Shown here in pieces: positions 26,039 through 55,797 of a stretch of 64,000 nucleotides of DNA (position 1 is the first letter of the stretch; each line of letters opens with the position of its first letter). The DNA is taken from the IMG/VR virus record IMGVR_UViG_3300009163_000026, positions 1 through 64,000 of that record, one strand, 5' to 3'. The notes beneath the pieces were generated by a model. That model was not told where the DNA came from. It did not search any database and saw only the letters and a program-made list of their open reading frames with translations. The DNA is from a virus. Position numbers and translations under genes: made by a program.

Positions 26039-26377
26039 TTATAATATCTCGTTATCTTTATAATATACATGAATTGCGGGGAAATGTTCAAGTATAAAAT
26101 TATTTAGTCTCTCTGTACCAGGACGGAAATCGCGACTTTCTCCTTCATCACCCTCTTCGTCGAGAGTATCTGACCTGTGCCACAAATCAAAGTTAAAATT
26201 AGGATGGTCTTCCGCTACCATTATCTCCCTTTCAAATTTGAACCTCCTAGGATTAGGGGTAGGTCCCATATAGGTAACGTCTACATAAATATTTCCTAAT
26301 TCCGGTAAGTCACCATCCTCACCATACATTTCGTGCGAAACAACATCAGCCTCAATTTCAAATATTTTATATCTCAT
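26039..26377 (-). CDS. MRY-family paralog
   Basis: MRYK start; VAEDHPNFN. Confidence 0.75.
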   Translation of the reverse strand: MRYKIFEIEADVVSHEMYGEDGDLPELGNIYVDVTYMGPTPNPRRFKFEREIMVAEDHPNFNFDLWHRSDTLDEEGDEGESRDFRPGTERLNNFILEHFPAIHVYYKDNEIL

Positions 26378-26825
26378 TGTCGTATGTATTTAAATTTACA
26401 AAGTCAGGAAGACATTTGTGTAGTATAGTACGTGTCATATCACGTGCAGCTTCTTTATCATCAGTAATAAAATAATATAGTTCGGCATCCTTCCTACGGG
26501 CGGCGTTTAGAACATCAAAATTAAAGCTGGGGTGTGATTCAGGTAGTATGTAATAGTACCGTGTTGCGTTACCGTATTGTGCATCTGTATTGCTACCACC
26601 ATCAACCATCCTATATAGGTATTGAGCAACCCTAATAAATTCATATTTTGATAGATCATCATCCTCATCGGTTCCTGCTGGACTCCAGTGGCTATTCAAA
26701 GCATTTTCTGGTACTCGGTCATACTTGAGTATACTACCATCGACTATCTTAACGTCTTCTATATGTAGTGTCTCAACTTCATCGAGATCAACAGCGCCTT
26801 GTATTTGAAATTTCTTGTATCTCAT
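26367..26825 (-). CDS. MRY-family paralog
   Basis: MRYK start; LPESHPSFN. Confidence 0.75.
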   Translation of the reverse strand: MRYKKFQIQGAVDLDEVETLHIEDVKIVDGSILKYDRVPENALNSHWSPAGTDEDDDLSKYEFIRVAQYLYRMVDGGSNTDAQYGNATRYYYILPESHPSFNFDVLNAARRKDAELYYFITDDKEAARDMTRTILHKCLPDFVNLNTYDNEI

Positions 26826-26826
26826 T

Positions 26827-27210
26827 TTAAAAGTAGTTACGTAACAAGTTATTAAATTGCTTCCAAGCGGGGTGGTCTTTAGATATTATAGGCTTTACAG
26901 GTGTGTTATATGTACCACCTTCTCCAAGTACAACTCTATCTACTACATATATATTAAAGAATGGATGTGTCTCTGGTACAAAGAAAGCATTCCGAGAAAA
27001 CGTCCGTTGATATTCTAACAACTCGTAAATACCATCACGCCATAAGCGGTAGCGATTGTCTCTATATATCGGAGTATACGGAGGTGCACCAGGCTCCATT
27101 TTAAATTCGTCATCGGTTAGATAGAAAAAGCCATCAGGTATATCCGGATAGTTCATACGCACAGATCGCTGTTGATCATTATAGCCGAAAAAGTATAGCC
27201 TATATCTCAT
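26827..27210 (-). CDS. MRY-family paralog
   Basis: MRYR start; VPETHPFFN; TATAAATA upstream. Confidence 0.75.
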   Translation of the reverse strand: MRYRLYFFGYNDQQRSVRMNYPDIPDGFFYLTDDEFKMEPGAPPYTPIYRDNRYRLWRDGIYELLEYQRTFSRNAFFVPETHPFFNIYVVDRVVLGEGGTYNTPVKPIISKDHPAWKQFNNLLRNYF

Positions 27211-27243
27211 TTTTATAACCAGTTAAGTATATTTATAGTAAAA

Positions 27244-27316
27244 GCGTCCGAAGGACGCCCGGCACACACATCTTTGTCTCGTTGGTCTCGTTTGTCTCAC
27301 TGGTCTCGTGTGGTCT
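27244..27316. repeat. Hairpin plus 9-nt GTCTC tandem repeats
   Basis: gcgtcc gaa ggacgc, then ttgtctcgt tggtctcgt ttgtctcac tggtctcgt. Confidence 0.7.
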
Positions 27317-27321
27317 TTTTA

Positions 27322-27888
27322 CTATCGCCCGAATTCAAAAGGCGTCCCGTTAGGTCCAGCGGTAGCCATTACTCTCCCAAAATCATCAGTGTCTTCATTC
27401 GCTACAAGCGAGTTGTATTGTTCGTGGGTGATAATTAAATCACGTAGTTGCCTCTTAGTATCGAGATTGTGAAACTCAGTTGAGGATATAAAATAATCAT
27501 CAACACAATTATACATTAAGTCTATATTAAACAAAGGATCTGTTTCATCTACTACCTTTATAAAGAACTGTGTCATGGTGAAATGAAGATCTTGTTTAAC
27601 GGATCGATCACCATATTCTTTCGATGTAGGTTGATCCTTACGTGTAACATAGTTATAGAACTGAGTTTTACCTAACTGAACATAGTATAGGTGTCGGAGA
27701 TTATAAGAGTAATTAGGAGAGATTATAATGTCGTCTCTACCATAAATGAACCTACCAGGCGGCTTCTTAAGTATACCGGCAAGAGCGCCTATAAAATCTA
27801 TTTCGGAGCCGTCGTGGATCTCGTCACCGTTAGTATCATAGGCAGCATCGTAAACCCTATAGGAAAAATCAATTGCTTTATATCTCAT
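27322..27888 (-). CDS. MRY-family paralog (start corrected)
   Basis: MRYKA at 27888; VDETDPLFN. Confidence 0.72.
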   Translation of the reverse strand: MRYKAIDFSYRVYDAAYDTNGDEIHDGSEIDFIGALAGILKKPPGRFIYGRDDIIISPNYSYNLRHLYYVQLGKTQFYNYVTRKDQPTSKEYGDRSVKQDLHFTMTQFFIKVVDETDPLFNIDLMYNCVDDYFISSTEFHNLDTKRQLRDLIITHEQYNSLVANEDTDDFGRVMATAGPNGTPFEFGR

Positions 27889-27896
27889 ATTATTTA

Positions 27897-28193
27897 TTAC
27901 CAATTTCTACACGACCAGTAACCGGCCGATGTCTTATCTTTCTTCTGAGAACACTTGTGTCTAGCTCTGAATGACTTGCGGCGCTTTGGATTAGACTTCT
28001 TAATACGTAGATTAGGGTCTCCGTAATGCACTCGCTTATAACCGGTCTTTGTCTTCACACACCGCATATATTTCTTATCGGATCTACTAGAGGACTGCTG
28101 ACCGGTTACCTTAGTGCATTGGGTGGCCTCTATGATAATAGAGGTATCAGCTAATGCTTCCAGTAACTCATAATACTCGATAAACGATATCAT
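27897..28193 (-). CDS. Basic conserved phage protein with CTS-like leader
   Basis: MISFIEYYELLE; HYGDPN...RRKSFRARHKC...AGYWSC; TATAAATA upstream. Confidence 0.7.
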   Translation of the reverse strand: MISFIEYYELLEALADTSIIIEATQCTKVTGQQSSSRSDKKYMRCVKTKTGYKRVHYGDPNLRIKKSNPKRRKSFRARHKCSQKKDKTSAGYWSCRNW

Positions 28194-28201
28194 ATTAGTA
28201 T

Positions 28202-28540
28202 TTATAGCTTTAGGGATTGCAGATATTTAAATAGTAGACTTGACAGTATGGGTGCTAGATCTAGAGAGAGGGCCGTGTTTATTTGAGTTTGATAAGCAGG
28301 AATATCAAAGATTTCTGTTTTAATAGCAGAATAATTAAAGAATTTATTATCCTCTGGTACCATATATATATCACCGTACATAGAACCGAGGAACCAAACA
28401 CCATCTTTAGCCTCCTTAAATCCTTTAAGTACAAGGTTAGCCGGGTAGTTCACTCCTGCAAAGTTGCTTCCGTGTCTGATATATAATGTTTGATCATAAT
28501 CCATCATTCCTTTATGTTTAAAATATGATTTGTATCTCAT
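28202..28540 (-). CDS. MRY-family paralog
   Basis: MRYK; VPEDNKFFN; close paralog of next gene. Confidence 0.78.
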   Translation of the reverse strand: MRYKSYFKHKGMMDYDQTLYIRHGSNFAGVNYPANLVLKGFKEAKDGVWFLGSMYGDIYMVPEDNKFFNYSAIKTEIFDIPAYQTQINTALSLDLAPILSSLLFKYLQSLKL

Positions 28541-28545
28541 TGTTA

Positions 28546-28884
28546 TTAGAGCTTTAAGGAGAAGAAATATTTAAGTATTAAATTTGACACTCTACCAGAT
28601 ACATCAAACCCAAAGACCGCGTTTAGTTCAGTTCGATAAACAGAATAATCAAAGATTTCTTTTTTAAGAGGGTAAAAATTAAAGAATTCATTATCCTCTG
28701 GTACCAGATATGTATCACCGTACTGAGAACCGATGAACCAAACACCATCTTTAGCCTCCTTAGCTCTTTTAAGTCCAATGTTATTTGGGTTCTCCACGTC
28801 TACAAAGCTGTTTCCGTGTCTGATATATAATATCGAACCACAACTTATCGTTCTCCCCTCCACAAAATACGGTTTATATCTCAT
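28546..28884 (-). CDS. MRY-family paralog
   Basis: MRYK; VPEDNEFFN. Confidence 0.78.
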   Translation of the reverse strand: MRYKPYFVEGRTISCGSILYIRHGNSFVDVENPNNIGLKRAKEAKDGVWFIGSQYGDTYLVPEDNEFFNFYPLKKEIFDYSVYRTELNAVFGFDVSGRVSNLILKYFFSLKL

Positions 28885-29828
28885 CTTTTGGTTAAGTTTG
28901 AATTATCTGGCAAAAACTTGCCTTTGAGTTCTAAGCGTTCTTGGTTATCGATCCAATATTGCTGAAGGTCCTCAGGAATGTCGGCTCGGGTACTATCGAG
29001 GATTTTTAAGTATATATCATATACAGCGTGTAGGTCTCGGGCTGGTAAGCTATTCTTAAGCGCTCCAATTAGTTTAAAATAATCACCAGCTGTATCCGTG
29101 GTTAAATCTAAACCATATAGTCTATTAAGGAGACTTATAGCCTGGGGAGGACTCGATGCCGCAATCTCTTGAGTTGCCTTATTTTTGATTCCATAGTTGT
29201 GGGAGAATGTATATCCTTTGTGAGAGAAAAGAGCTACAATAAGCTGGGTTCTGTGTAACCCTTTAATACTTCCTTTATAAACTGCCGAGTGGTAGGCAAA
29301 CGATAACCAATCTATATCACCTACATTGATATCAATCTGAACATTCTGCCCTACTTCCCTACCCTGTTCATCATATTGAGGAAACTGACAGAAGAGAGAA
29401 CCAGAGGAAGAACCTTTAATGTCTACTAAAATCTGCTTATCAGAGGCTTGGAGTTTTTCTGCAATTGCTACAATAACTGCTCGCTTAAGAAGCTGGGTAT
29501 CTACAGCGGTCTTTGAGCGTTTCTTAAAACCAACAAAGAGGTCTTGAACTCTGTTATCATCTAATCCCCAATCAGAAATATCTTTGAAAGAGTCCTCTGA
29601 TAGAGCAAGATCTATGTCTCCTGAGTAGTCTTTTTTACCGACAGATCCAAGTGTGCGCACACCTTTAAAGTGTGGGTGTGCTTTAGGAAACACACCTCCA
29701 AACTGCTTAAAGAATTCTCGAAGAGTTGGATTTATATGCTCCTTTTTAATCGGACCAGTCTCATCAAAAACATTACCCCCCTCTGTGAGAATTTGTCTTG
29801 TAGTAAAGAACCTAGCAAACGATATCAT
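28881..29828 (-). CDS. Pol-beta-superfamily nucleotidyltransferase with CTS-like leader
   Basis: LGSVGKKDYSGDIDL (GS..DxD) and VQIDI; MISFARFF..ILTE|GG; TATAAATA upstream. Confidence 0.7.
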   Translation of the reverse strand: MISFARFFTTRQILTEGGNVFDETGPIKKEHINPTLREFFKQFGGVFPKAHPHFKGVRTLGSVGKKDYSGDIDLALSEDSFKDISDWGLDDNRVQDLFVGFKKRSKTAVDTQLLKRAVIVAIAEKLQASDKQILVDIKGSSSGSLFCQFPQYDEQGREVGQNVQIDINVGDIDWLSFAYHSAVYKGSIKGLHRTQLIVALFSHKGYTFSHNYGIKNKATQEIAASSPPQAISLLNRLYGLDLTTDTAGDYFKLIGALKNSLPARDLHAVYDIYLKILDSTRADIPEDLQQYWIDNQERLELKGKFLPDNSNLTKR

Positions 29829-29891
29829 ATACAAGTGTATTTATAGGAGACCCATTATAAAGAGCTCGAGAATTTTGGCAAAAAAAATTTT

Positions 29892-30239
29892 TTAGGGCTT
29901 AAAATTGTCAATTGCTAGTTGCTGTATCTCACGGGTCCGGTGTATGACATGATTAGGATACATTTCATCGTTTGCTCTGATAAGACGATCTATATTAAAA
30001 AATGGGTTACTCTCTGGTACCATATAGACAGCACCATTTGAACGGCGTTCGCTAGGGACCCATATACCATTTTTAATCTCCGTACAATTAATAAGATTAA
30101 TACCCCATCTATAAGCCGGCTGATCGCTTTGCGGGTAGTGGAAGTTGTTACCCTGTTTTATAAACACCTCCCCACACCCCGCAAGCTCCGTCTGGTGAGT
30201 TATCTGTTCAACTTGAATTAAATATGCTTTGTATCTCAT
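29892..30239 (-). CDS. MRY-family paralog
   Basis: MRYK; VPESNPFFN. Confidence 0.75.
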   Translation of the reverse strand: MRYKAYLIQVEQITHQTELAGCGEVFIKQGNNFHYPQSDQPAYRWGINLINCTEIKNGIWVPSERRSNGAVYMVPESNPFFNIDRLIRANDEMYPNHVIHRTREIQQLAIDNFKP

Positions 30240-30248
30240 TATTACAAT

Positions 30249-30605
30249 TTAAGACTTTAAGGATTTGAGATATTTAATTACAAGAACCTTTACTCTAACC
30301 TGTAGATAAATAGGATCTGCATCCAATCCATTTATAATAACACCTGTAGTAAAAAATTGGTGGCTCTCTGGTAAAATAAAGATATCACCTACTTCATGTT
30401 TGAGGAAATAGACACCATCGTTAAGCTCTTCACAATTCTTAAGGTTACTCATGACAACGTTGCTTGTTTTATAATCAAAATGATCTCTATTGCTAATACC
30501 AGCGAGCTCCTTCATATCTACAAAGTCATTACCTTGTCTAGCTAACACCAACCCACCAGGATATAATGACCTGTACCCCTGTATAATGCATGCTTTGTAT
30601 CTCAT
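30249..30605 (-). CDS. MRY-family paralog
   Basis: MRYK; LPESHQFF. Confidence 0.75.
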   Translation of the reverse strand: MRYKACIIQGYRSLYPGGLVLARQGNDFVDMKELAGISNRDHFDYKTSNVVMSNLKNCEELNDGVYFLKHEVGDIFILPESHQFFTTGVIINGLDADPIYLQVRVKVLVIKYLKSLKS

Positions 30606-30614
30606 TATTAGTAT

Positions 30615-31022
30615 TTAAGACTTTATGGATTCGAGATACTTTATTGCTAAATTTCTTATTATATCTTTAGTGAGCAGCGTTTCGTCGATGTCCCGTAATT
30701 CATCCAACCCAACTAGAATAAGATCTACATTAAAGAAAGGATGAGTCTCTGGTATACAAAAGATAGCTGTTTCCCGTGCTCGGCCCGCTAAGCCCCTAGT
30801 TCCAGCAATCTCCTCTGCTGACGGAGGGTCAGCATGCATCCAGATACCATCTTCAACTTCGTGTAGATCTTCAAGCATCATACTACCTGAGGACCCCCAT
30901 TCAGTCCGAGAATTATTTACGAAGTTATTACCATTCCTAAACAGCATTGGCTCGTACCCTAATCTAAATCTAACGGTTCCGGTGCGCAAAAATGTCTCTA
31001 TAAGGTATCCTTTGTATCTCAT
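30615..31022 (-). CDS. MRY-family paralog (start corrected)
   Basis: MRYKG at 31022; IPETHPFFN; TATAAATA upstream. Confidence 0.75.
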   Translation of the reverse strand: MRYKGYLIETFLRTGTVRFRLGYEPMLFRNGNNFVNNSRTEWGSSGSMMLEDLHEVEDGIWMHADPPSAEEIAGTRGLAGRARETAIFCIPETHPFFNVDLILVGLDELRDIDETLLTKDIIRNLAIKYLESIKS

Positions 31023-31156
31023 CTTTGTGTGTGTATATTTATACAAAGCCCTATATAGAGACCACGAGAATTTTGACAAAAATTTTTGGACATGGGCTCA
31101 AACCCCGCCCTCCGGCGTCGCTATTATACACAATTCGGAGCGCTGGAGGCTCCATA

Positions 31157-31192
31157 GAGCGTCTCTCTCCAGCACCATAGAGAGAGACGCTC
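31157..31192. other. 13-bp perfect hairpin
   Basis: gagcgtctctctc / gagagagacgctc with 10-nt loop, downstream of 31204..31599. Confidence 0.7.
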
Positions 31193-31203
31193 GCCCTCGG
31201 CGA

Positions 31204-31599
31204 TCACTTCGTACCATCAATCACTAGGCAGCCCATATCATCATCGTCCTCCCCCACAAAGGTTTCCGGTTCTTCTTTACCTTCAAACACTACTACCTTC
31301 TTTACTGGCTTAGGCTTAGCTTCTTTCTTCACGGCTGTCTTCTTTACCTTAGCCTTAGCTGCAGCTGGTAACGCCTCAACGATCTCACCGCGAGTAATCT
31401 TACCTACCTCCTTGAGGTGCTCAGCTACCATCTTGAGCTCTACTACCTCTTGGCGTAGATCATCAGTGTACTTCATTGCGACGTTCCACAGAGCTTGCAT
31501 CAACTGCTTATCAGTCGTCATCAGGTCTTGACGCACATAGGTAAACTCAGAGCGGACTTGTTCAGGTGCAACGATAGTAACGAATTTGCTTTTAGTCAT
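31204..31599 (-). CDS. Hypothetical protein with Lys/Ala-rich tail
   Basis: 131 aa; GGAAC-N5-TATAAT promoter at 31639-31658. Confidence 0.7.
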   Translation of the reverse strand: MTKSKFVTIVAPEQVRSEFTYVRQDLMTTDKQLMQALWNVAMKYTDDLRQEVVELKMVAEHLKEVGKITRGEIVEALPAAAKAKVKKTAVKKEAKPKPVKKVVVFEGKEEPETFVGEDDDDMGCLVIDGTK

Positions 31600-31657
31600 T
31601 TGATTAATTTGGTTTTAAGTTTAGCTTCTCTCTTCGCCTTATTATACGGCAGTTCCC

Positions 31658-31783
31658 TTACAAGAGCTCATCAAGCCCAGCAATGAAGTTCTCCCAAGTC
31701 TCTTGCTCTTCGTCAGAGAACGAGTCCCAGTTTTGGTTGATTGCAGCGATGATGGCTTTGATTTGATCGATTGATTGTTTCAT
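31658..31783 (-). CDS. 41-aa cassette ORF (MKQSIDQ; not in track)
   Basis: Lies between two GGAAC promoters; ends TAA-GGGAAC. Confidence 0.6.
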   Translation of the reverse strand: MKQSIDQIKAIIAAINQNWDSFSDEEQETWENFIAGLDELL

Positions 31784-31789
31784 TACGCC

Positions 31790-31809
31790 TTATTATAATA
31801 GAGTTCCCT
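31790..31809 (-). promoter_or_regulatory. GGAAC-N5-TATAAT promoter (representative of ~28 copies)
   Basis: TAAgGGAACtctatTATAATaa. Confidence 0.8.
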
Positions 31810-32033
31810 TAGCGGCGTTTGCTGACAACATAATGCCAGACTTCTTTTTCAGTAACAGGATCGTAACTTTCGCAATCCTTTCCACATTCCAAATCACCTT
31901 TCAGGTAGCAGACATATTGTCCGGATTGGGAGAAGTGCCAAGGCATATGCCATCCCTTTTCAACTTCATACTTTGCCTTCACATCTTTAAAGGTCTTAAA
32001 AATCTCTTCAGTGTGTTGATTAATTTCGGTCAT
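31809..32033 (-). CDS. Hypothetical cassette gene
   Basis: Bounded by GGAAC motifs. Confidence 0.6.
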   Translation of the reverse strand: MTEINQHTEEIFKTFKDVKAKYEVEKGWHMPWHFSQSGQYVCYLKGDLECGKDCESYDPVTEKEVWHYVVSKRR

Positions 32034-32284
32034 ATCTTATTATAATAGAGTTCCCTTCGGCCAGTTACATCAGCAGCGGCATCAAGAATGAATTCAACGA
32101 TGCTATAGCCGTCGAATCCGGTTTTGTAAGGCGCGCGCTTTAAAAGGTCGTTGTCGTAAGTATCAACTGCAGCCTTGTAAGCATCAAGAGCAGACTCAGC
32201 CGCTTCCTTGGTGCTGTATGCACCTATTGCTTGTCCTCCCTCGTAATCAACGAGGCCTTCTAGTATGAATATTGATTGTTTCAT
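32030..32284 (-). CDS. Hypothetical protein
   Basis: GAYSTKEAAE motif common in small phage proteins. Confidence 0.6.
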   Translation of the reverse strand: MKQSIFILEGLVDYEGGQAIGAYSTKEAAESALDAYKAAVDTYDNDLLKRAPYKTGFDGYSIVEFILDAAADVTGRRELYYNKI

Positions 32285-32310
32285 TACCGTTAGTGTATTA
32301 GATGTCCATA

Positions 32311-32538
32311 TTAGGCATACATCACAGACTCATCAATGATGGCATAGAGTTCTTCCATGGCTGCTTGCTGCGAGCCATAGTCAGAGATGGTAACCTCCCA
32401 GCGGTCTCTGAGGAATGAGTTGTTGGTATATGTTCCGGTGACGAGCTTATCGCCTTCACGACGTACCTCAGTGTAGAGATAATCTCCATTTTCTAGCTTG
32501 ATCTCTATCGGCCCGATACTATAATTAGTTAATGACAT
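32311..32538 (-). CDS. Hypothetical cassette gene
   Basis: GGAAC promoter 32544-32562. Confidence 0.6.
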   Translation of the reverse strand: MSLTNYSIGPIEIKLENGDYLYTEVRREGDKLVTGTYTNNSFLRDRWEVTISDYGSQQAAMEELYAIIDESVMYA

Positions 32539-32561
32539 ATCAGTATTATACCTAAGTTCCC

Positions 32562-32879
32562 TTACGCGGAGAAGACCATCTCTGCCTGCTCTTCCTGCTC
32601 AGTGGGGAGCTCTAGATCGTAGAAGAAGACCATCTCTTCCTGCTCAGTGGGACATCCTCGAGGTGTTTGGCTGAGGGGCAAGCATGGGCATGCCTTCTCT
32701 CCATCAGACCAGCCCCAGGAGTAGAGCTCTTCCACTAGCTCTCCAATTGGTCTAGCGGTGTATACTCCTTCAAAGAAATAGACGCCGAACACTGTCTTAC
32801 AGATGTTCAGGGGCAGACCACCAGTGATGTCCTTATACCAGCCCATACGCAGGGCTAAGCGATGTAGTGCAGTCTTCAT
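32562..32879 (-). CDS. Hypothetical cassette gene with duplicated C-terminal PTEQEE..MVF
   Basis: Promoter 32895-32914; start MKTAL. Confidence 0.55.
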   Translation of the reverse strand: MKTALHRLALRMGWYKDITGGLPLNICKTVFGVYFFEGVYTARPIGELVEELYSWGWSDGEKACPCLPLSQTPRGCPTEQEEMVFFYDLELPTEQEEQAEMVFSA

Positions 32880-32946
32880 TAGTCGTGGATATTTATATTG
32901 TATTAGAGTTCCCTTAGCGCCGCTCTTTAACGACATAATCTGTACG

Positions 32947-33222
32947 TTAAAGTTGTTTTGGTAATATCAATTTAGGAAGATCAATTCCATCAATACTTTT
33001 CAAACTTCCAATAACTAACCAAAAAGCTCCTTCATCGTAAACAGCCATTAAGATATTAGGAACCATTATTTCTAATCTATAAAAAATATGAGAAGTTGTA
33101 TCTTCAAAGAACTTTTTAATGTATGGATGATTAACTAATTCTTCTTGTGTTTCAAATAGAAATGGATCTGGTTCTTCGTCCATTTCGATGAAGTCTGGAA
33201 TATATGGCATGAATTTATTCAT
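32947..33222 (-). CDS. Hypothetical cassette gene
   Basis: Promoter 33227-33245. Confidence 0.6.
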   Translation of the reverse strand: MNKFMPYIPDFIEMDEEPDPFLFETQEELVNHPYIKKFFEDTTSHIFYRLEIMVPNILMAVYDEGAFWLVIGSLKSIDGIDLPKLILPKQL

Positions 33223-33455
33223 ACCTGATGATATCAGAGTTCCCTTAGCGGCTCTCCATCAGCCAGTCGACTGGGCTGCGGCTAACAGAGAGCGCCCAGT
33301 GGTCTGCGAATCGCGCAGCATAGACTAGGCGCTCTTCTGCTGTCAGAAGTTCCGATAAGGCTTTATTGGACGGGCATGCGGCGATCTTCTCATTGACCGA
33401 GCGCTTGAGTTTCTCTTTAGTTTTCCAATGCATGCCTGATGGTATCGGAGTTCCC

Positions 33456-33803
33456 TTAACCCTCGAACTCTGTCCACCAGATAGTATCGACGATGAGATC
33501 AAGCTGCATTCCGAACAGCTCACCTATCATATCAAGCGACTCATCATATGAGATATCCGCGGCATCATCACCGTATTTCTCATCGATGAACGCATCCCAA
33601 GCATCTACGCTGATGGCACCCTTCTGCCTTAGTGTGTTATAGACTCCTTCTTCTACGCTGCCAGGCTCAGGCACATAAGCACCGCCGCTATCGTCTTTAA
33701 ACTGACCCTTGAATGAGTATTCGTTCAGCAGATGATTCACGGTCTTATCGTATTCTTCTTGAATCTTAGAGTGGGATTGAGTTGATTTCTTCATGTGTGT
33801 CAC
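33456..33803 (-). CDS. Acidic hypothetical cassette gene
   Basis: Promoter 33806-33824; ends TAA-GGGAAC. Confidence 0.6.
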   Translation of the reverse strand: MTHMKKSTQSHSKIQEEYDKTVNHLLNEYSFKGQFKDDSGGAYVPEPGSVEEGVYNTLRQKGAISVDAWDAFIDEKYGDDAADISYDESLDMIGELFGMQLDLIVDTIWWTEFEG

Positions 33804-33832
33804 TATATTTATATCAGAGTTCCCTAATGAGG

Positions 33833-34074
33833 AAACCAGTTTCCGCCTAGGCGTAGGAGTTTGGAGCTATAGGGAACACCGGGATAATGGGTCTCAGAAG
33901 TTCTGAGTGGCCGAGCTGGGAAAACCAGTTTCTGCCTGGGCGTCGGAGCGCAGAACCACAGAATACGGGGTATATTAGTATTTCAGGCCTATGCAGCATA
34001 AGCTCTAACTACTATATATCTATATAGACAGTGGTATTAGATAACTTTTTTTATTAGATAACTTTTTTTATTAG
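33833..34074. repeat. Non-coding block: 27-nt direct repeats and 17-nt AT-rich tandem repeat
   Basis: aaaccagtttcYgcctRggcgtMggag at 33833 and 33922; attagataacttttttt x2 at 34036. Confidence 0.8.
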
Positions 34075-34174
34075 TGTTACTTAACAGGTGACTTTTACCC
34101 TTTTTATGATAATATTTTAAGTATTTTTTTACTTTTTTAAATACCTCTGGGCAAGATAAGTCTCATATCTTATC

Positions 34175-35368: not shown

Positions 35369-35390
35369 ATTATTTGTATTCATCTTTCTT

Positions 35391-35741
35391 TTATAATGTT
35401 TTGCGTATGCTATCGTATAAATCATATAGTATCTCTGATACACGGTAACCTCCTTCAATATGACCTTCAGATACTCTACATCTTTTTATGAACATACCCG
35501 CATTGAAGTACTGGTGTGTCTCTGGTATAAGTAGTTTATCAACTATTGGGCGGTCATTAAGTCCTGGTACTATCATAGAATAAAATCTTATGCCATTCTC
35601 TTCTATCTTTCTCAGTTCAAACAATGAAAGGTCGCCGCCGTGTGTTAGCTCTATATCATCTCCATCGCTTATGCCTATTTCATATACTAGTGGTGTAGCT
35701 ACAAACGTCCCTGGTACAAATTTTATACTGCTGTATCTCAT
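35391..35741 (-). CDS. MRY-family paralog
   Basis: MRYS; IPETHQYFN. Confidence 0.75.
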   Translation of the reverse strand: MRYSSIKFVPGTFVATPLVYEIGISDGDDIELTHGGDLSLFELRKIEENGIRFYSMIVPGLNDRPIVDKLLIPETHQYFNAGMFIKRCRVSEGHIEGGYRVSEILYDLYDSIRKTL

Positions 35742-35746
35742 ATACT

Positions 35747-36127
35747 TTAAAATAATTCTGGTTGAGTGGTTACGCTCTTTAGATAGTTACCGAACATTCT
35801 AAAAAGAACTTTTAATATATCGCCATGAACATCGTTAATATCATTTTTGTCGTTAATTTGTGAAATTCCATACATAATAGAACCACAACCAAAGAGTGGG
35901 TTATCTTCCCGGGTAAGAACTACAAAATCATCTGAGCTACGATTACCCACATACACACTCAAGCTATCATCTGTTGTTGGTATTAGTTGGATACTGTTAA
36001 CCTGCCCTGTAATAAATGTGAATGGTAGGTCTTTTACAGCTGCTTCAAGTGAGGTATATACCCTAGATAATGGGTCGATATAACCACCTCCTGAATATTT
36101 AAAGTAACGTGTTATTGTGTATCTCAT
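35747..36127 (-). CDS. MRY-family paralog
   Basis: MRYT; TREDNPLF. Confidence 0.7.
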   Translation of the reverse strand: MRYTITRYFKYSGGGYIDPLSRVYTSLEAAVKDLPFTFITGQVNSIQLIPTTDDSLSVYVGNRSSDDFVVLTREDNPLFGCGSIMYGISQINDKNDINDVHGDILKVLFRMFGNYLKSVTTQPELF

Positions 36128-36131: not shown

Positions 36132-36500
36132 TTATTTTTTTTGTTTTGCGCGCCACTCTTTCATCACTCCTAGGTAAAGTTTATGTAGTATATCAATTAT
36201 TATATCATTAAAACTTATTGGAAGGTCATTTTCTACCTGAAGTATCACATAGCTGTTAAACAACGCGTGTGTCTCTGGGAGAAACATATGACACTCGGGC
36301 GCAACTGCAAAGGACAGTACAATGCCTTCCTTACTCACAAAGTTTACAGGAAATCGAATAATCTCTGGAATATAATCGCTATTTGTCCTCTTCTTACTAT
36401 AATAATATAGATTCATACTATCATCTTTTACTATAGATAATCCAGGTGATATATATAGATGATCCTTATTATTAGGGTATCCTATGTATGAGTATCTCAT
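36132..36500 (-). CDS. MRY-family paralog
   Basis: MRYS; LPETHALFN. Confidence 0.75.
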   Translation of the reverse strand: MRYSYIGYPNNKDHLYISPGLSIVKDDSMNLYYYSKKRTNSDYIPEIIRFPVNFVSKEGIVLSFAVAPECHMFLPETHALFNSYVILQVENDLPISFNDIIIDILHKLYLGVMKEWRAKQKK

Positions 36501-36507: not shown

Positions 36508-36834
36508 TTAATTATTTAACTCTCTCACTATGCCTTCTGATGTATTCTTCAAGAACGAATCTATCTTGTACAAATTAAATCTAAGGATACACACTGCACT
36601 GAACAGTGGGTGTGACTCTGGTATAAGAAGAAATATATCATATTTCAGGTTCGTGCTTGTACTGCCCAGTAGGTATACTCCATCCTTTTGCTTAATTAAA
36701 TCCAACATCCAACTCTTTGGGTTTCCGGTAATAGCGGTGAGCTTATTATACTCTGGATTAAAGTTATAGGTATACGGGCTCGTATTATTATAGACAGAAC
36801 CTTCCTTAGCAAATGTAATAACTGTGTATCTCAT
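36508..36834 (-). CDS. MRY-family paralog
   Basis: MRYT; IPESHPLF. Confidence 0.75.
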   Translation of the reverse strand: MRYTVITFAKEGSVYNNTSPYTYNFNPEYNKLTAITGNPKSWMLDLIKQKDGVYLLGSTSTNLKYDIFLLIPESHPLFSAVCILRFNLYKIDSFLKNTSEGIVRELNN

Positions 36835-36840: not shown

Positions 36841-37194
36841 TTAATTTGTAGTAAACAACTCAGCGAGTTTTATTGCTTCTGGTAATAGGAACGCTCGTAC
36901 TTTCCCTCGTAAGCTATATAGATCAGTGCTATATAAGGCTGTGTAATAATTAAACAGTGGGTGTGTCTCTGGTATGACTAGATACTCATCCCTATGACTG
37001 TCTCTTCCATTAGCGACTGCAAAGCAAAAAAAGACACCAGAGACCTCGTCCGTTTTTATTAGCATCGTTGGTTGATCGGATCTGTTAAGCTCTTTAAAAG
37101 CACCATTGATTTTCTGAAACGGGCGGAACACTACCTGCGGTGAATGATTGCGCGCTGCTTCTCTTTTTGAATAGTGTATAGCTCTATATCTCAT
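36841..37194 (-). CDS. MRY-family paralog
   Basis: MRYR; IPETHPLFN. Confidence 0.75.
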   Translation of the reverse strand: MRYRAIHYSKREAARNHSPQVVFRPFQKINGAFKELNRSDQPTMLIKTDEVSGVFFCFAVANGRDSHRDEYLVIPETHPLFNYYTALYSTDLYSLRGKVRAFLLPEAIKLAELFTTN

Positions 37195-37198: not shown

Positions 37199-37534
37199 TT
37201 AAAAGGTTTTTACTAAGTTCTTAAGGACTAAATAGGTTATTTCAGGGTGGGACCACTGTCGGGGGAAGTTTGGACCTAGAGCTGCTATATACAGATTGAA
37301 TATAGGGTGTCTCTCATCTACTATAAAGCAATACTTCCCAAAAGTTCCTGGTGTCTTATATACTGTTAGACCTAGTTGACCGGTGTTAATCATTTTCATA
37401 TGCTTACCATATATTCCTTCGATGACATCAATAGCTTTCCCTCTTGTATTATAACAAAATCTATATGCGTCTGTATCGTGTGCTTCGCCTACTACTTTTG
37501 TAGTATTCTTGAGAGTGTATAAATGGTATCTCAT
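37199..37534 (-). CDS. MRY-family paralog
   Basis: MRYH; VDERHPIFN. Confidence 0.75.
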   Translation of the reverse strand: MRYHLYTLKNTTKVVGEAHDTDAYRFCYNTRGKAIDVIEGIYGKHMKMINTGQLGLTVYKTPGTFGKYCFIVDERHPIFNLYIAALGPNFPRQWSHPEITYLVLKNLVKTF

Positions 37535-37866
37535 AATGTTCCTTCTTCACCATACTTCTCTGCTTCATCTAGAGTTGTGGGTATACCAACCTTCCTAAAC
37601 TCCCTGGCTCCATAGAGATGAATCCTTCTAAAAAGCCTTTTTCGTGTACTAAACTCGCAATCTATTATAACACCAATGTTAAATAATGGATGTGTCTCAG
37701 GTACCTTAACATCTACTAAACGTAATGTAGGATCATCTTTTAGGTGTACGTAGTATCCAAGCCCATCTGACGTAAAGATCCATTCATTACCCATCTTGTC
37801 GTAGAGTTCTATTTCAATATCATTTAGACTCTCTTCTATATATACCTCAAGATAGCTGTATCTCAT
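37531..37866 (-). CDS. MRY-family paralog (first of a 7-gene array)
   Basis: MRYS; VPETHPLFN; TATAAATA upstream. Confidence 0.75.
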   Translation of the reverse strand: MRYSYLEVYIEESLNDIEIELYDKMGNEWIFTSDGLGYYVHLKDDPTLRLVDVKVPETHPLFNIGVIIDCEFSTRKRLFRRIHLYGAREFRKVGIPTTLDEAEKYGEEGTL

Positions 37867-37873: not shown

Positions 37874-37882
37874 ATATTTATA
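37874..37882 (-). promoter_or_regulatory. T4-type late promoter TATAAATA (representative of >20 TAAATA sites)
   Basis: Directly upstream of the MRY array start 37866; matches gp55 consensus. Confidence 0.75.
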
Positions 37883-38002
37883 CTTTAATAGACACATAGG
37901 TTACTATTTATAATAGCTCTTGGGAGATAGACAAAGACTCCTGCAGAGCTAAACTCATACAGGAGTCCTTACAAATAGGGAGATGCAAGAGCATCCTATG
38001 AA

Positions 38003-38770: not shown

Positions 38771-39082
38771 TCATACGGGCTTAGATTTTGCTTTAATCGT
38801 CACACGCAGTTTTTTAACTGCATCATGAAATAATTCTTCAGTACCGATTTTAATATAATCAGCTGTTTTAAGCACTAGTAATCCATAATTATAATACGGG
38901 TGGGTTTCAGGTATACCCATCCAATGTTCTGTAAGAAATATACCGGTTTCATCATCTGTTGAAATAATATCCCAGCTGCCATTCCTTGCAGCTAACACCA
39001 TATCATTCCCATCTCTATAGCAAAACGCAGACCTAAATTGTATCGGCCCATGCCGGCCAAAATATACAGCTGAATATCTCAT
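38771..39082 (-). CDS. MRY-family paralog (start corrected)
   Basis: MRYSA at 39082; IPETHPYYN. Confidence 0.72.
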   Translation of the reverse strand: MRYSAVYFGRHGPIQFRSAFCYRDGNDMVLAARNGSWDIISTDDETGIFLTEHWMGIPETHPYYNYGLLVLKTADYIKIGTEELFHDAVKKLRVTIKAKSKPV

Positions 39083-39668: not shown

Positions 39669-40037
39669 TCAGAGTTCCTTTCGCTTTTTACGTCGCTTAT
39701 AATTAGAAAGAAGCTTTACAAGCCAAGGTTCTACAACTTTACTAGCAGGTAAGACAGCATCATACGTATCTAATACTGTTACTAATTCTGAATAACGCAA
39801 AAGCGTGCAATTAAAAAACGGATGATTCTCAAAAAAAGCAATTATGTAGCTATGCTGATCTTCCTCACCGATAAAATTCGGACACCACGCAAAGTCTTTT
39901 TCCTTTATCCAACTGTAATAATCATCCTCTAGGTCCTCCAGACCTTTAATAGAACTACTACCCAGTCGTGTTGGATCTTGATAACGGTAGAAGCTGTCAG
40001 CTTCAGTCATATCAATTGCTATAAAGTTAACACGCAT
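39669..40037 (-). CDS. Divergent MRY-family member (MRV start)
   Basis: FFENHPFFN at the equivalent position; TAAATA upstream. Confidence 0.6.
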   Translation of the reverse strand: MRVNFIAIDMTEADSFYRYQDPTRLGSSSIKGLEDLEDDYYSWIKEKDFAWCPNFIGEEDQHSYIIAFFENHPFFNCTLLRYSELVTVLDTYDAVLPASKVVEPWLVKLLSNYKRRKKRKEL

Positions 40038-46847: not shown

Positions 46848-46888
46848 GATATATCTATTTATGCCTCGTGAGTAAATACTCTATAAAC

Positions 46889-47248
46889 TTAAAGCTTAAA
46901 ACTATTCGGCTTAACACTACGGATATACTGCTCACCATATGCCTCAAGTGTTCCAGAGATAAACTGAAACTGTCTCTGTGAGAGGGAGTCAATATCTTTT
47001 AACTTCTTATAGCTTATAAGGTATTCAGCTTTAAATTTATCCTCCCTATCCTCTCTCTTATACCATTTAAGTCCATTGGCGTAAGGCTTAACCTTACCAG
47101 CAAAGTGGAAAGCTGTTAATGTAGCGTAACCACCTTTCTTTTCTGCGGCTGCTTGTATCTTAGCAGCTCCAGAAGCCCGCTTCTTTATAAATTCAAGGAA
47201 ATCATCTACTGTATCTATAATTTTTTCAAAAAGTCCAATGAATTGCAT
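46889..47248 (-). CDS. Late protein with CTS-like leader
   Basis: MQFIGLFE; TATAAATA upstream. Confidence 0.6.
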   Translation of the reverse strand: MQFIGLFEKIIDTVDDFLEFIKKRASGAAKIQAAAEKKGGYATLTAFHFAGKVKPYANGLKWYKREDREDKFKAEYLISYKKLKDIDSLSQRQFQFISGTLEAYGEQYIRSVKPNSFKL

Positions 47249-47540
47249 ATAGATATATTTATAGGTAAGGCTGTTGATTATAATTAATACCTTCAGTTAC
47301 TCCACATGAGAACATATGAAGAATAGCTTTTTCAAGCTGCTCGATAGTAAAGAGTTTCAGTGTCATAAAGTCTCTATAGGTGTTGAACTTGAATGCATTG
47401 CCTTCTAAGCATGTATATGCTGTATTAAATGCATCCTGCGTGTTAAACTTAATGTAGAGGCCTTCGAGCGGTTGGTTGATATCAATTGTCATATTATGAT
47501 TGTAAGTAAGTTCCTTTGTCGTAATTATTTGTAGAGAAAA

Positions 47541-48377: not shown

Positions 48378-50246
48378 TTATGCGGCAGTTTCCTCAACCA
48401 CTTCAGCATCGAACACACCATCTTTATCAGCTTGTGATTCATCTACTGGCTTAGGCATTGCTTGCGCTAATTGCATAAGCAATGCTTCAAGTTCACCTTG
48501 AGCAGCCTTAAGCGCATCAATATCTTCACCAGCTAAAGCTAGGTTACAAGCAGCAATCTTTTCTGTTACTGTCTCTTTAAGCTCACTCGGGATATTCTCT
48601 CCCAGCTCTCTTACCTGACCTTCAACATTAAACACAAGTGAACTACACTGATTGCGTTGATCGATCATATCTACGCGCAGCTTATCAGCATCAGCGTGCA
48701 GCTCTGCGTCAGCTTTTGCCTGCTCAATCTCTTCTTTTGATAGTCCAGACGATCCTTCAATTGAAATTTTCTGCTCCTTGCCGGACTGCTTATCTTTAGC
48801 AGACACATGCAGGATACCGTTTGCATCAATATCGAAGGTTACTTCAATTTGAGGTTCACCTCTACGCGCAGGTGCAATACCGTCTAGTTTAAATTGACCT
48901 AGTAATTTATTATCACTAAACATCTTACGCTCACCTTGACAGATTTGAATATCTACAGCGGGCTGATTATCAGCTGCTGTAGAGAACGTTTGACTTTTCT
49001 TAGCAGGTATAGTTGTATTACGTTCGATAATGTTAGTAGCGATGCCGCCCATTGTTTCAATTGAGAGTGAGAGAGGAGTAACATCAAGTAGTAGTACATC
49101 TGTTACATCTCCTGCTAACACACCGCCTTGAATAGCAGCACCTAACGCAACAACCTCATCAGGATTAACACCTTGGTTTGGTGCTTTACCTGCTAATGCA
49201 GCAGCGGTTTCAACAACCTTAGGCATACGCGTCATACCCCCTACCAAGACAAGTTCTACAGCACCTTTAATACCACCATCCTTTAAACATTCTTTAACAG
49301 GCTTTTTAGTGCGAGTAAACAATGAGTCAGTTAGCTGTTCGAGCTGTGATCTCGTCATTGTGAGGGAGATATGCTTAGGACCTGTAGCATCAGCCGTAAC
49401 AAACGGAATTGAAATATCATAAGTCTGTGCTGATGATAGAGCAATCTTAGCCTTCTCAGACTCCTCTTTGATTCGTTGCAACGCGTCGGGCTGATTAGAT
49501 AGATCAATGCCTTGATCCTTCTTAAACTCTCCTACAATCCATTCAATTAAAGCATTATCCCAATCATCGCCACCTAGTGAGGTATCACCGTTTGTAGATA
49601 GAACTTCAAATACTCCATCACCGATTTCGAGTACTGAGATGTCGAAGGTACCGCCACCTAAGTCATAGACAGCGATCTTACCGTCTGCCTTCTTATCTAA
49701 ACCGTAAGCCAAAGCAGCTGCAGTTGGTTCGTTAATGATACGTAACACTTCAAGACCGGCAATTTCTCCCGCTGCTTTAGTAGCGCTGCGTTGTGAATCA
49801 TTAAAGTAAGCTGGTACAGTGATGACTGCTTTAGTAATTTTCTCTCCGATCTTTGCTTCTGCATCTGCTTTTAGTTTACTTAGAAGCATTGCAGCAATTT
49901 CTTGTGGTGAGTATACTTTCTTTTGACCTTCAACTTCAACTTCAATATGTGCATCACCGTTAGCTGCTTCTACGATAGTATAAGGTACGCGCTTATCAGC
50001 GTCCTTAAGCTCGGAGAATTTGCGACCAATAAGTCGCTTTGCAGAGCTAATTGTATTTTTTGGATTGGTTACTGCTTGACGCTTAGCGGCTTGGCCTACA
50101 AGGCGTTCACCGTTCTTAGCGAACGCTACTACTGATGGAGTAGTGCGTGCGCCTTCTGCGTTTTCAAGAATGTTCGCATCTTTACCATCCATGATGGCCA
50201 TGCACGAGTTAGTAGTTCCTAGGTCGATTCCTAATATTTTTGACAT
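48378..50246 (-). CDS. dnaK: Chaperone DnaK (Hsp70)
   Basis: [54 protein letters not shown]. Confidence 0.98.
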
Positions 50247-53972: not shown

Positions 53973-53977
53973 AAAAT

Positions 53978-54051
53978 TGGAGCGTAATAAGAGAATCGAA
54001 CTCTTGACACCTACTTGGAAAGAAGGAGTTTTACCATTAAACTAATCACGC
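53978..54051 (-). tRNA. tRNA-Gly(UCC)
   Basis: GCGTGAT acceptor, TT TCC AA loop, U73, CCA. Confidence 0.9.
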
Positions 54052-54059
54052 GAAAAAAG

Positions 54060-54134
54060 TTGCGGGTTTCGGAATTGCACCGAAACTATTTCTGCTTATG
54101 AGACAGATCCAGCACTGCTACTGATTGACCCGCG
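54060..54134 (-). tRNA. tRNA-Met(CAU), initiator-like, atypical
   Basis: CGCGGG/CCCGCA with C1:A72 mismatch, CT CAT AA loop, TGCAATT T-loop. Confidence 0.7.
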
Positions 54135-54380
54135 ATTTAAAAATTTAAAGAGCTTTAACAGGCATACGACCTCGACAGTCCGAAGACTAGAACTTAATCT
54201 AAATCGAGAGCATCGCCACTCTTCATGAGTCCGGTTGCATTTTATATCAAAGAGCGAAAATTAATCACTAACCTTTAGTTAGTGAGGATCTTTCAAGTCT
54301 GGCTAATCCCTACTCAATCGATCCGTTTATATTGTAAATACTATTTATACTTTATCTACTTCTAAGTATATCGAAGTTCC

Positions 54381-54548
54381 TTAACCTGGTTTCGATCCAA
54401 AGACAATTCGTGAGGAATATGAATGCTGATTGTATTCAAAATGCATCATATCACCAGCAAAGGTCTCTTCAATGTCGATAAATTCAGTGTCCTCAACGTT
54501 CACCCAACCGTAATGCTTATCCGTAAATACCCAAGTATTGTCTTTCAT
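54381..54548 (-). CDS. Small cassette gene (MKDNTW)
   Basis: Bounded by GGAAC motifs. Confidence 0.55.
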   Translation of the reverse strand: MKDNTWVFTDKHYGWVNVEDTEFIDIEETFAGDMMHFEYNQHSYSSRIVFGSKPG

Positions 54549-54555
54549 ATGATTA

Positions 54556-55041
54556 TTATAAGTAAGTTCCATTGAAAATTAGCGGTGTTAATAATTCTGC
54601 TCGACTGATCGCTTCAGCCTCCCAAGGTAAGCTAGTATACTCTTCATCGCAAGAAGGTTTAACAGTCACAATATCCTTACCTTTCCATTTATAGCATTGA
54701 GCTTTGGAGCTATTTCCGAGTCTCTTAGCGTAAAATTGCTCGATATGCACGAGCTCATGTAACAACGTATCTTTAAAAGAGTCGAAATCTTGCCGCACAT
54801 CAACCTCAACAATATAATTCTTACCGTATGACGTTAAAGGTATGTGCTCCGTCGTAGCGCTGCCGTAAATATTGCGAATTGGTCGCAAGCGTATGAACAG
54901 ATTTCTAGGTAAGATCATATGCTTTCTAATATCCTTAAACCGCTCTTTGATGACATCAGCTAGAAGCCGTGCATATGCGCGGTGTTCTCTGTAGTTACCG
55001 GAAAGAATTGATGAAGATATGGTAATGGTGGGTAAACTCAT
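54556..55041 (-). CDS. Zn metallopeptidase-like (HExxH)
   Basis: TLLHELVHIEQ, Y..LPWEAEA. Confidence 0.72.
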   Translation of the reverse strand: MSLPTITISSSILSGNYREHRAYARLLADVIKERFKDIRKHMILPRNLFIRLRPIRNIYGSATTEHIPLTSYGKNYIVEVDVRQDFDSFKDTLLHELVHIEQFYAKRLGNSSKAQCYKWKGKDIVTVKPSCDEEYTSLPWEAEAISRAELLTPLIFNGTYL

Positions 55042-55237
55042 TATGCGGGTATAATTTTAATGATTTCGCTTATATCTGGGCATATTTCGTAAAAGAAATC
55101 ACGCGCTTCTGTCTTATCTGCAGCATAAACAATAATTGAATTCTCCAGCTGCGTCCGTGGTACAATAAATTTTACAAAATACATTCCTAAATTTTTAACC
55201 TTGGCTTCTCTCATACCATTATTATATTAGAGTTCCC

Positions 55238-55435
55238 TTAACTCTTAACTCTTAAACAACGCAGGTTGATCAGTTGTCTTGGTGAGATATAGAATGTATT
55301 CTCTGGATCGGAATATGATCTGAGCATATAACTTCTACCTTCTCTATTCATAGGATCTTACCAGAAGATCTCTCGTTCATATTGGTTATAAGCTATTTTG
55401 GTTCTTTCACTACGACTGCAAACTTTGTATCTCAT
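55238..55435 (-). pseudogene. Disrupted MRY-family gene
   Basis: ATGAGATAC start, in-frame TAA after 25 codons, frame continues and ends at TAA-GGGAAC. Confidence 0.5.
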
Positions 55436-55797
55436 AGCTTAACTCCTACCTTTGTTTGTATAAAATTGCGCATATACTTGTTAGCAAAATCACGAATGAC
55501 TTCCCGTTTATCTTTTGGTACATTATAATACAACATATCATAACACATTGATGCATTAAACAGAAAATGGGTCTCAGGCATCATAAAATATATTACAGGC
55601 TTTTTAAATCTTAGCTCCCTATCTGCGAAATAGATACCGTCAACATTGTTTTTAAAAACTACACCCATGCTATAGCCATCCTGCGATCGAAACTCACCTG
55701 TATCTTCATCTCTATACCACAACTGACCATCACGCTGCAGCAATGTCCCTTCATTAGTTCGCTTACCTCCAGAACATTCACATACAATATATCTCAT
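55432..55797 (-). CDS. MRY-family paralog
   Basis: MRYI; MPETHFLFN; TATAAATA upstream. Confidence 0.75.
   Translation of the reverse strand: MRYIVCECSGGKRTNEGTLLQRDGQLWYRDEDTGEFRSQDGYSMGVVFKNNVDGIYFADRELRFKKPVIYFMMPETHFLFNASMCYDMLYYNVPKDKREVIRDFANKYMRNFIQTKVGVKL

Follow-up and report, generated by a model that had tools for sequence, protein, structure and literature searches.

A lineage-specific family of small, highly variable paralogous proteins in freshwater T4-like phages

Tailed phages seldom carry large paralogue families, and a viral fragment on which one small gene recurs in many highly variable copies raises the question of what these copies do for the phage. We address this question for positions 26,039 to 55,797 of a 64,000-nucleotide (nt) stretch of viral DNA (positions 1 to 64,000 of IMG/VR virus record IMGVR_UViG_3300009163_000026; hereafter, the window), in which an initial annotation, made from the sequence alone, had pointed to an expanded set of minus-strand open reading frames (ORFs) with a shared start and a shared internal motif, here called the MRY family. 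With 86.9 kb and an estimated completeness of 41%, the whole viral record is part of the genome of a freshwater phage distantly related to T4. Its gene products include a Gp23-type major capsid protein (sharing ∼33% identity with those of cyanomyophages), a scaffold-like protein, ribonucleotide reductase, ClpP, a baseplate spike domain, QueF with its neighbors, and four tRNAs. The MRY genes occupy ∼7 kb, roughly 3% of the estimated 210-kb genome, and 14 to 20 copies recur in larger related contigs, pointing to a function in which this phage lineage invests heavily. The family is new, but large phages are known to expand families of accessory or head paralogues, and the MRY genes belong to this kind of phenomenon. 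Our tentative answer is that MRY proteins may be carried in the phage head.

The MRY genes form one lineage-specific family

A script that collected every ORF of ≥80 amino acids (aa) beginning with MR[YV] on both strands of the window returned 19 ORFs, all on the minus strand and encoding proteins of 103 to 188 aa, with MRY as the first residues of 18 and MRV of one (39669-40037). This reproduces exactly the set given in the initial annotation. A profile built from the 19 members recovers the same 19 places in the whole record, which follows by construction and is hence not independent support, and detects no further copy in bases 64001 to 86855. Independent support comes from elsewhere: in a HMMER search of 1.84 billion representative proteins the profile matches only look-alikes (83 matches at an E value of ≤0.001, nearly all of 90 to 150 aa with an MRY start and the motif), and four further phage contigs carry 5 to 20 copies each. 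The 19 ORFs are therefore homologous and constitute one lineage-specific family of small soluble proteins in freshwater T4-like phages.

All 19 members contain the motif [ILVM]-x-E-x-[HND]-x-x-[FY]-[NTGS], located about two-thirds along the protein. The earlier description of this element as PE[TSD][HN]PxFN holds in that some form of it is universal, but the pattern is too narrow: the strict version P-E-[TSD]-[HN]-x-x-F-N fits 12 of the 19, and DERHPIFN, quoted as an example, falls outside it. Three more members deviate in the last two residues only (FFT, LFS, and YYN), and four have more degenerate forms (AEDHPNFN, DETDPLFN, REDNPLFG, and FENHPFFN). In an alignment of 89 sequences (the 19 members and 70 relatives), M1, R2, and the motif Glu are the only invariant positions, while Y3, the Gly of a DG[IV][YW] turn, and the F and N of the motif are conserved in >90% of sequences and a G[ND]xF turn is kept in most members. 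The family therefore has four anchors (MR[YV], G[ND]xF, DG[IV][YW], and the E motif) and not two; the region between the first and last of them is not devoid of anchors, nor is GN.F confined to the genes at 29892, 30249, and 30615, both turns being family-wide. The label “hypervariable” is nevertheless fair: pairwise identities among the 19 are 17 to 41%, rising to 52% only for the genes at 28202 and 28546 (75% nucleotide identity), which are recent duplicates, as had been proposed. The 19-member alignment contains no conserved stretch of 7 to 10 columns, and charge is equally variable, with predicted isoelectric points (pI) of 4.4 to 9.9 across the family and with 34% of the 89 sequences acidic and 42% basic.

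The MRY start is conserved at the level of protein. Codon 2 is AGA in 52 genes, AGG in 10, CGA in 3, and CGT in 2; TAT and TAC are used equally at codon 3; and some genes of the family start with GTG. Conservation of the nucleotide string ATGAGATAY as the cause of the shared start was rejected because of these alternative codons at position 2 and the GTG starts in relatives.

Comparison with sequence collections shows the family to be previously unnamed and without a relative in any curated library. In Pfam, PHROGs, NCBIfam, and PADLOC, no family was matched by more than one of the 19 members, isolated single-member matches having E values of 0.001 or weaker; PHROGs gave no family at an E value of <0.01 for any member, and PDB sequences gave no match at E values up to 10. 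The initial statement that no named family could be recognized thus holds in all five collections, and the profile search that had been proposed as a check on it returned MRY-type look-alikes and no characterized family. A word-indexed search of 5.8 billion proteins yielded 28 unnamed matches without Pfam domains, and the cluster members are all annotated as “hypothetical protein.” Among 50,697 phage records, there was no match to the 14-kb array region by megablast or to one relative (P0085) by tblastn. The ESM Atlas provided no usable feature match, and its structural matches all had template modeling (TM) scores of <0.42. A search for related loci with a single protein as the query found nothing; one with a motif-rich subset (A3) was successful.

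Two long, unrelated proteins, P0019 (1,470 aa) and P0031 (727 aa), match the profile solely via a repeat with ETDP[LI]FN. They contain 8 to 11 tandem repeats of ∼30 residues each with the sequence [ST]E[TS]DP[LI]FN, which resembles the MRY motif and the helix that follows it. The shared region being only this 30-residue repeat, both were dropped as family members and treated as a short-motif coincidence; the resemblance may be just that, or it may reflect a shared strand-turn-helix unit.

An AlphaFold2 model of the member at 36841-37194, computed with the 89-sequence alignment, has a mean predicted local distance difference test score (pLDDT) of 86 and a predicted TM score (pTM) of 0.77. It predicts a compact alpha/beta domain in which a five-stranded antiparallel sheet is followed by the [ILV]-P-E-[TS]-H-P-x-F-N loop and two C-terminal helices. 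In order, the elements are a strand (residues 2 to 8) formed by the invariant Met-Arg-Tyr end, a helix (10 to 16), five antiparallel strands to residue 75, the motif loop (76 to 82), a helix (83 to 89), and a long helix (93 to 115). For the most atypical member (MRV start, FENHPFFN), the model is less confident (pLDDT of 69) but shows the elements in the same order. Homology and the agreement of these two models support the earlier expectation of a common fold, and the long C-terminal helix predicted in both bears out the amphipathic helix noted at that end. Low-information, indel-rich columns cluster at model residues 9 to 24, 36 to 47, 58 to 70, and 88 to 98, so that most variation and most indels are located in four stretches, loops between secondary-structure elements among them. 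The original proposal is supported as far as a common scaffold with variable stretches goes, conservation being confined to a few anchors.

As modeled, the domain has no convincing structural neighbor. Foldseek searches found nothing above background in the PDB (best E value, 0.15; TM score, ∼0.3) and no match at an E value of 0.001 or better in BFVD. VIA-align comparison with 48,161 chains gave nothing above the tool's stated noise level of 7 to 8, the best match being a designed scaffold (Z score of 6.4). The commonest weak matches were to PH-like, Ran-binding (RanBD), PTB, and EVH1 domains, which likewise have an antiparallel sheet capped by a C-terminal helix, but the scores are at noise level (Foldseek E value of ≥0.15 and TM score of ∼0.3; VIA Z scores of 3 to 4) and membership cannot be claimed. 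Two proteins were also dropped as candidate neighbors: Bas11 Gp54 (VIA Z score of 4.4), which is a trigger of CapRel, and AcrIE2 (VIA Z score of 3.4), which is within noise.

Promoter motifs, cassette turnover, and selection

The T4 late-promoter consensus TATAAATA occurs 24 times, against 11.3 expected, and precedes the major capsid gene. It also lies 8 to 19 nt before the array-head MRY genes that start at 27210, 31022, and 37866 and before the solitary gene that starts at 55797, and two further copies (28199 and 29838) precede non-MRY genes heading operons that contain MRY genes. In two more distantly related contigs (G002 and G003), the late motif is GACTAAATA (CTAAATA), the cyanophage-type late variant, at a nearly fixed distance of 5 to 8 nt before the start codon. 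Over five contigs, a late motif is found within 40 nt of 36 of 70 MRY genes but of only 64 of 365 other ORFs. The spacing of the motifs predicts very short or absent mRNA leaders. A second promoter-like element, GGAAC-N5-TATAAT, is present in 30 copies with ≤1 mismatch, against 2.1 expected, between positions 14613 and 62463 of the window, mostly on the minus strand. It lies upstream of neighboring non-MRY small genes, probably represents a second promoter class, early or middle, and probably serves the MRY members at 38771 and 39669. Late motifs of the T4 type stand upstream of most MRY genes of the window and of the arrays of four relatives; if they are used, the MRY proteins would be made in bulk late in infection.

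A hint of transcription comes from a lake metatranscriptome, in which five contigs match the 14-kb region exactly, all of them just downstream of late motifs and two on the MRY genes at 37531 and 37199. These contigs are weak evidence, since DNA carry-over is possible, and although most of the arrays have no such contigs, this does not show them to be silent. A neighboring non-MRY gene (38003-38530, minus strand) is also covered by exact RNA-library contigs, over positions 38064 to 38437, and has a TATAAATA motif at 38536. Its product is a very acidic protein of 175 aa that is rich in Ser and begins with MRKTD, and a 66-nt tandem duplication (38052-38170) lies within the gene; the product of another late-motif gene, 42418-42840, begins with MRKSD.

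Comparison of array content among related genomes, as the initial annotation had recommended, revealed varying copy numbers and whole-gene indels. The 19 copies of the present record compare with 14 in G001 (105 kb), 20 in G002 (122 kb), at least 10 in G004 (24 kb), and at least 5 in G003 (12 kb). The capsid protein of G001 is 83 to 86% identical to that of the present phage, and the arrays adjoin a conserved ribonucleotide reductase block in every contig long enough to show it. Direct repeats mark gene boundaries (56 nt at 89% identity, across 30224-30279 and 30590-30645), and a 50-nt promoter repeat is shared by the region of the 29838..29845 motif and positions 31033 to 31082. A close relative from another lake (a contig of run X2) skips positions 29891 to 30247, i.e., exactly gene 29892-30239; elsewhere, it carries insertions of ∼365 and 920 nt. 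Whole MRY cassettes are therefore gained and lost between close relatives. Arrays may also move between phages: when G002 (24374-35435) is compared with locus L014 of G003, the synonymous divergence (dS) is 0.02 to 0.14 across the MRY region, far lower than the 0.58 to 0.68 in the adjacent ribonucleotide reductase genes, which suggests that the array region was recently exchanged by recombination.

For seven members, G001 has colinear reciprocal-best orthologues, with identities of 31 to 57%, compared to 55 to 96% for core proteins. The ratio of nonsynonymous to synonymous divergence (dN/dS) of the MRY orthologues is 0.14 to 0.98 (median of ∼0.35, mostly 0.15 to 0.45), above that of core genes (0.02 to 0.2) yet similar to that of other small ORFs (0.1 to 0.6). 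This indicates fast evolution under purifying selection, not demonstrably diversifying. The duplicate pair 28202/28546 alone reaches 1.1 (dN of 0.32 and dS of 0.28; bootstrap 95% interval of 0.68 to 1.93), which indicates relaxed or positive selection after duplication. In the form originally proposed, diversifying selection on the repertoire is not borne out.

Candidate roles of the MRY proteins

Several lines of evidence favor the reading, to which we assign a probability of about one in three, that the MRY proteins are head-packaged internal or ejected proteins, as are the internal proteins (IPs) of T4 and paralogue family B of phage SPN3US. First, their promoter wiring matches that of virion genes. 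Second, a T4-type prohead protease (Peptidase_S77) is present, adjoining a scaffold-like gene and gp23 in G001 and G002. Third, there is precedent on both sides: T4 IPs, which vary widely outside a conserved targeting sequence, become packaged along with the scaffold core and are then ejected, and one of them, IPI, blocks a host restriction enzyme (PMC3012670, PMC9026906), while SPN3US has 20 tandem paralogues, all of them head proteins, paralogue families being otherwise rare in double-stranded DNA phages (PMC5694885). As for the adaptor or antidefense role tentatively put forward in the initial annotation, late-promoter wiring is a poor fit to the usual early timing of antidefense genes; packaging, with delivery alongside the DNA, would remove this conflict.

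If packaged, MRY proteins would enter the prohead together with the scaffold core and, along with the DNA, would reach the next host cell, where each paralogue would present a different surface to a different host factor, e.g., a defense or takeover target. The conserved N terminus and loop would act as a clasp of the common fold and perhaps as a packaging handle. Cleavage after the invariant motif Glu is possible: [ILVM]-x-E conforms to the P3-P1 pattern of sites cut by T4-type prohead proteases, and it resembles a conserved [IM]-x-E, with T or A next, at the expected position of the maturation site in the capsid protein.

IPI, IPII, and IPIII of T4 and the polymorphic IP loci of other T-even phages encode small proteins (8 to 20 kDa) of T4-type phages that are diverse beyond a conserved N-terminal element and lie in plastic genome regions, and both lineages possess a T4-type prohead protease. 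T4 has 3 IP genes, however, compared to 14 to 20 MRY genes, and its IPs have no sequence match to the MRY proteins. The SPN3US family (gp83, gp138-154, gp161, and gp237) resembles the MRY family as a set of ∼20 mostly tandem, highly diverged paralogues in a giant phage, with a copy number varying from 2 to 20 among related phages (PMC5694885), and MRY copy number varies too. All of its members have been found in the head by mass spectrometry (PMC5694885). SPN3US and its kin are phiKZ-like jumbo phages, whereas the MRY carrier is a Gp23-type T4 relative.

Several points weigh against packaging, which we purely infer. The conserved N terminus of MRY proteins comprises only three residues, Met-Arg-Tyr, modeled as strand 1 of the fold, and is not a detachable leader like the ∼10-residue targeting sequence that T4 IPs lose by cleavage after L/I-x-E; no conserved [LI]-x-E occurs within the first 20 residues of the MRY alignments, in which positions 4 to 20 are variable. 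The motif loop is well ordered (pLDDT of ∼94) and conserved for six residues past the Glu, more than a protease site needs. The wide pI range noted above contrasts with the basic, lysine-rich character of T4 IPs. Searches of PHROGs and of BFVD with Foldseek detected no sequence or fold similarity to head proteins of T4 or of phiKZ/SPN3US, including SPN3US family B and the phiKZ inner-body families. Finally, the promoter motifs are consensus matches and not mapped transcription starts, and the genes at 38771 and 39669 appear behind the other promoter class.

A more ambitious version of the packaged reading, which we regard as unlikely, would make the family a set of ∼20 effectors that are delivered by the capsid and share a new small fold. 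Docking of every paralogue to the scaffold core or prohead protease would then fall to the fMet-Arg-Tyr strand together with the PETHPxFN loop, and the variable stretches would, on entry, each neutralize a different host factor. T4-type phages would thereby have a second “internal protein” system of independent origin, here in phages probably infecting freshwater Verrucomicrobia.

The main rival, only slightly less probable than packaging, is that the proteins are a late cytoplasmic repertoire that is never packaged, each binding a different host or competitor factor late in the infected cell; possible targets include abortive-infection sensors that respond to late structural proteins, superinfecting phages, and lysis-timing components. 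The late motifs, the single fold with variable stretches, the fast but constrained evolution of orthologues, and the turnover of cassettes agree with this explanation just as they do with packaging, and mixed charge and a compact fold with an integrated N terminus suit cytoplasmic binders better than DNA-embedded head proteins. Against it, known phage counterdefense proteins are mostly early genes, and no similarity of the MRY proteins to any known inhibitor was found, the match to AcrIE2 being within noise. Those large tandem paralogue families of giant phages that have been examined consist of virion proteins (PMC5694885).

It is rather improbable that the MRY proteins are head or virion assembly accessories, i.e., minor structural, decoration, or assembly-helper proteins, such as clients or adaptors of the phage DnaK/DnaJ, MoxR/vWA, or ClpP, and not host-directed effectors. 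The late wiring is like that of structural genes, and the window offers candidate partners: DnaJ adjoins the first MRY array, and Hsp70, a MoxR-type AAA protein, a vWA-like protein, and ClpP are encoded in the same window, the MoxR operon with TATAAATA at 47256. Structural and assembly proteins are, however, usually single copy and conserved, in contrast to the divergence and variable copy number of the MRY genes, and tblastn finds no counterpart of DnaJ, Hsp70, or MoxR in G001 or G002 despite their 14 to 20 MRY genes, a weak argument given that both contigs are incomplete.

Least probable are selfish or nearly neutral cassettes, in which a promoter-plus-start module (TAAATA-N6-ATGAGATAY) and conserved gene ends would drive duplication by unequal recombination with little benefit to the phage; the gene-boundary and promoter repeats, the whole-gene indels in relatives, and the dN/dS of the recent duplicates agree with this, but orthologues stay colinear and under constraint even between phages with core proteins that are as much as 45% different, and open frames, fold anchors, and N-terminal residues are kept through synonymous changes.

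If the MRY proteins are packaged effectors, nature would have provided a library of binders of host factors, all built on the same scaffold and with a new packaging signal; if they are not, the family is still a clear target for structure determination and defense-panel screens.

Gene catalogue, probable host, and neighboring genes

The members and their associated late-promoter motifs are listed in Table 1.

Table 1. MRY genes and nearby late-promoter motifs in the window
Feature	Position	Strand	Remarks
MRY member, 112 aa, AEDHPNFN	26039..26377	-	E 7e-18; acidic (pI 4.5); last of three-gene array; G001/G004 orthologues 35-43% identical
MRY member, 152 aa, PESHPSFN	26367..26825	-	E 3e-24; orthologues 56-58% identical
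MRY member, 127 aa, PETHPFFN	26827..27210	-	E 2e-25; heads three-gene array
TATAAATA late-promoter motif	27230..27237	-	19 nt before start of 26827-27210; GC hairpin and T-run precede at ∼27240-27258
MRY member, 188 aa, DETDPLFN	27322..27888	-	E 8e-22; insertion and C-terminal extension
TATAAATA motif	28199..28206	-	Just upstream of 98-aa gene 27897-28193, which precedes MRY gene 27322-27888
MRY member, 112 aa, PEDNKFFN	28202..28540	-	Recent duplicate of 28546-28884
MRY member, 112 aa, PEDNEFFN	28546..28884	-	E 4e-29
TATAAATA motif	29838..29845	-	Upstream of 317-aa gene 28881-29834, then MRY genes 28546 and 28202; within 50-nt direct repeat shared with 31033-31082
MRY member, 115 aa, PESNPFFN	29892..30239	-	E 1e-29; missing from close relative in another lake metagenome
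MRY member, 118 aa, PESHQFFT	30249..30605	-	E 3e-27
MRY member, 135 aa, PETHPFFN	30615..31022	-	E 5e-32; heads three-gene array
TATAAATA motif	31036..31043	-	13 nt before start of 30615-31022
MRY member, 116 aa, PETHQYFN	35391..35741	-	Last of seven-gene array
MRY member, 126 aa, REDNPLFG (degenerate)	35747..36127	-	E 5e-17
MRY member, 122 aa, PETHALFN	36132..36500	-	ORF script and profile
MRY member, 108 aa, PESHPLFS	36508..36834	-	ORF script and profile
MRY member, 117 aa, PETHPLFN	36841..37194	-	High-confidence AlphaFold2 model
MRY member, 111 aa, DERHPIFN	37199..37534	-	Exact RNA-library contig over 37441-37591
MRY member, 111 aa, PETHPLFN	37531..37866	-	E 7e-11; heads seven-gene array; exact RNA-library contig over 37632-37794
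TATAAATA motif	37875..37882	-	8 nt before start of seven-gene array; second copy 37905-37912
MRY member, 103 aa, PETHPYYN	38771..39082	-	Follows phrog_1987 gene 39094-39513; downstream of GGAAC-N5-TATAAT promoter 39663-39678
MRV variant, 122 aa, FENHPFFN	39669..40037	-	E 7e-19; downstream of GGAAC-N5-TATAAT promoter 40354-40369; G001 orthologue 57% identical
Solitary MRY member, 121 aa, PETHFLFN	55432..55797	-	E 1e-28; adjoins tRNA-Leu
TATAAATA motif	55806..55813	-	8 nt before start of 55432-55797

DNA of this phage and of close relatives is found in freshwater and lake metagenomes, the statements on habitat resting on sequencing runs X2 and X6. Its Hsp70/DnaK (48378-50246, minus strand) is 70 to 85% identical to DnaK of freshwater Verrucomicrobiales metagenome-assembled genomes (MAGs; Akkermansiaceae and Luteolibacter), and because the best 80 genomic loci for this protein all belong to Verrucomicrobiales, comparison of this gene suggests that order as the host or gene-donor lineage. 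The MRY profile detected nothing in the five Verrucomicrobiales MAGs with the closest DnaK genes, which are incomplete and provide no proof of absence. A literature search on this phage group returned nothing relevant, and, to our knowledge, very few phages of freshwater Verrucomicrobiales, the likely host group, have been characterized.

Two non-MRY genes accompany the arrays in relatives. A calcineurin-like metallophosphoesterase (Pfam match on the G001 orthologue; locus L004, 15238-15906) lies inside the MRY arrays of G001 to G004; its orthologue in the present record (63799-64470, minus strand) extends across the window end, ∼8 kb from the solitary member at 55432-55797 and ∼24 kb from the main arrays. 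A 131-aa protein without a family match (31204-31599, minus strand), with a Lys/Ala/Pro-rich, histone H1-like stretch at approximately residues 79 to 103 and an acidic C-terminal end, is kept among the arrays in G001, G002, and G004.

Two further clusters were noted on the minus strand. QueF, an AAA_28 P-loop protein, a formyltransferase-like protein, and a 269-aa gene product are encoded in a tight cluster (11699-14606) that is kept in G001 and G002 and suggests a 7-deazaguanine DNA modification pathway. The MoxR operon (44871-47263), in which the MoxR-type AAA ATPase is encoded together with the vWA-like (DUF2201_N) protein, may be late expressed, since the TATAAATA motif at 47256 precedes it.

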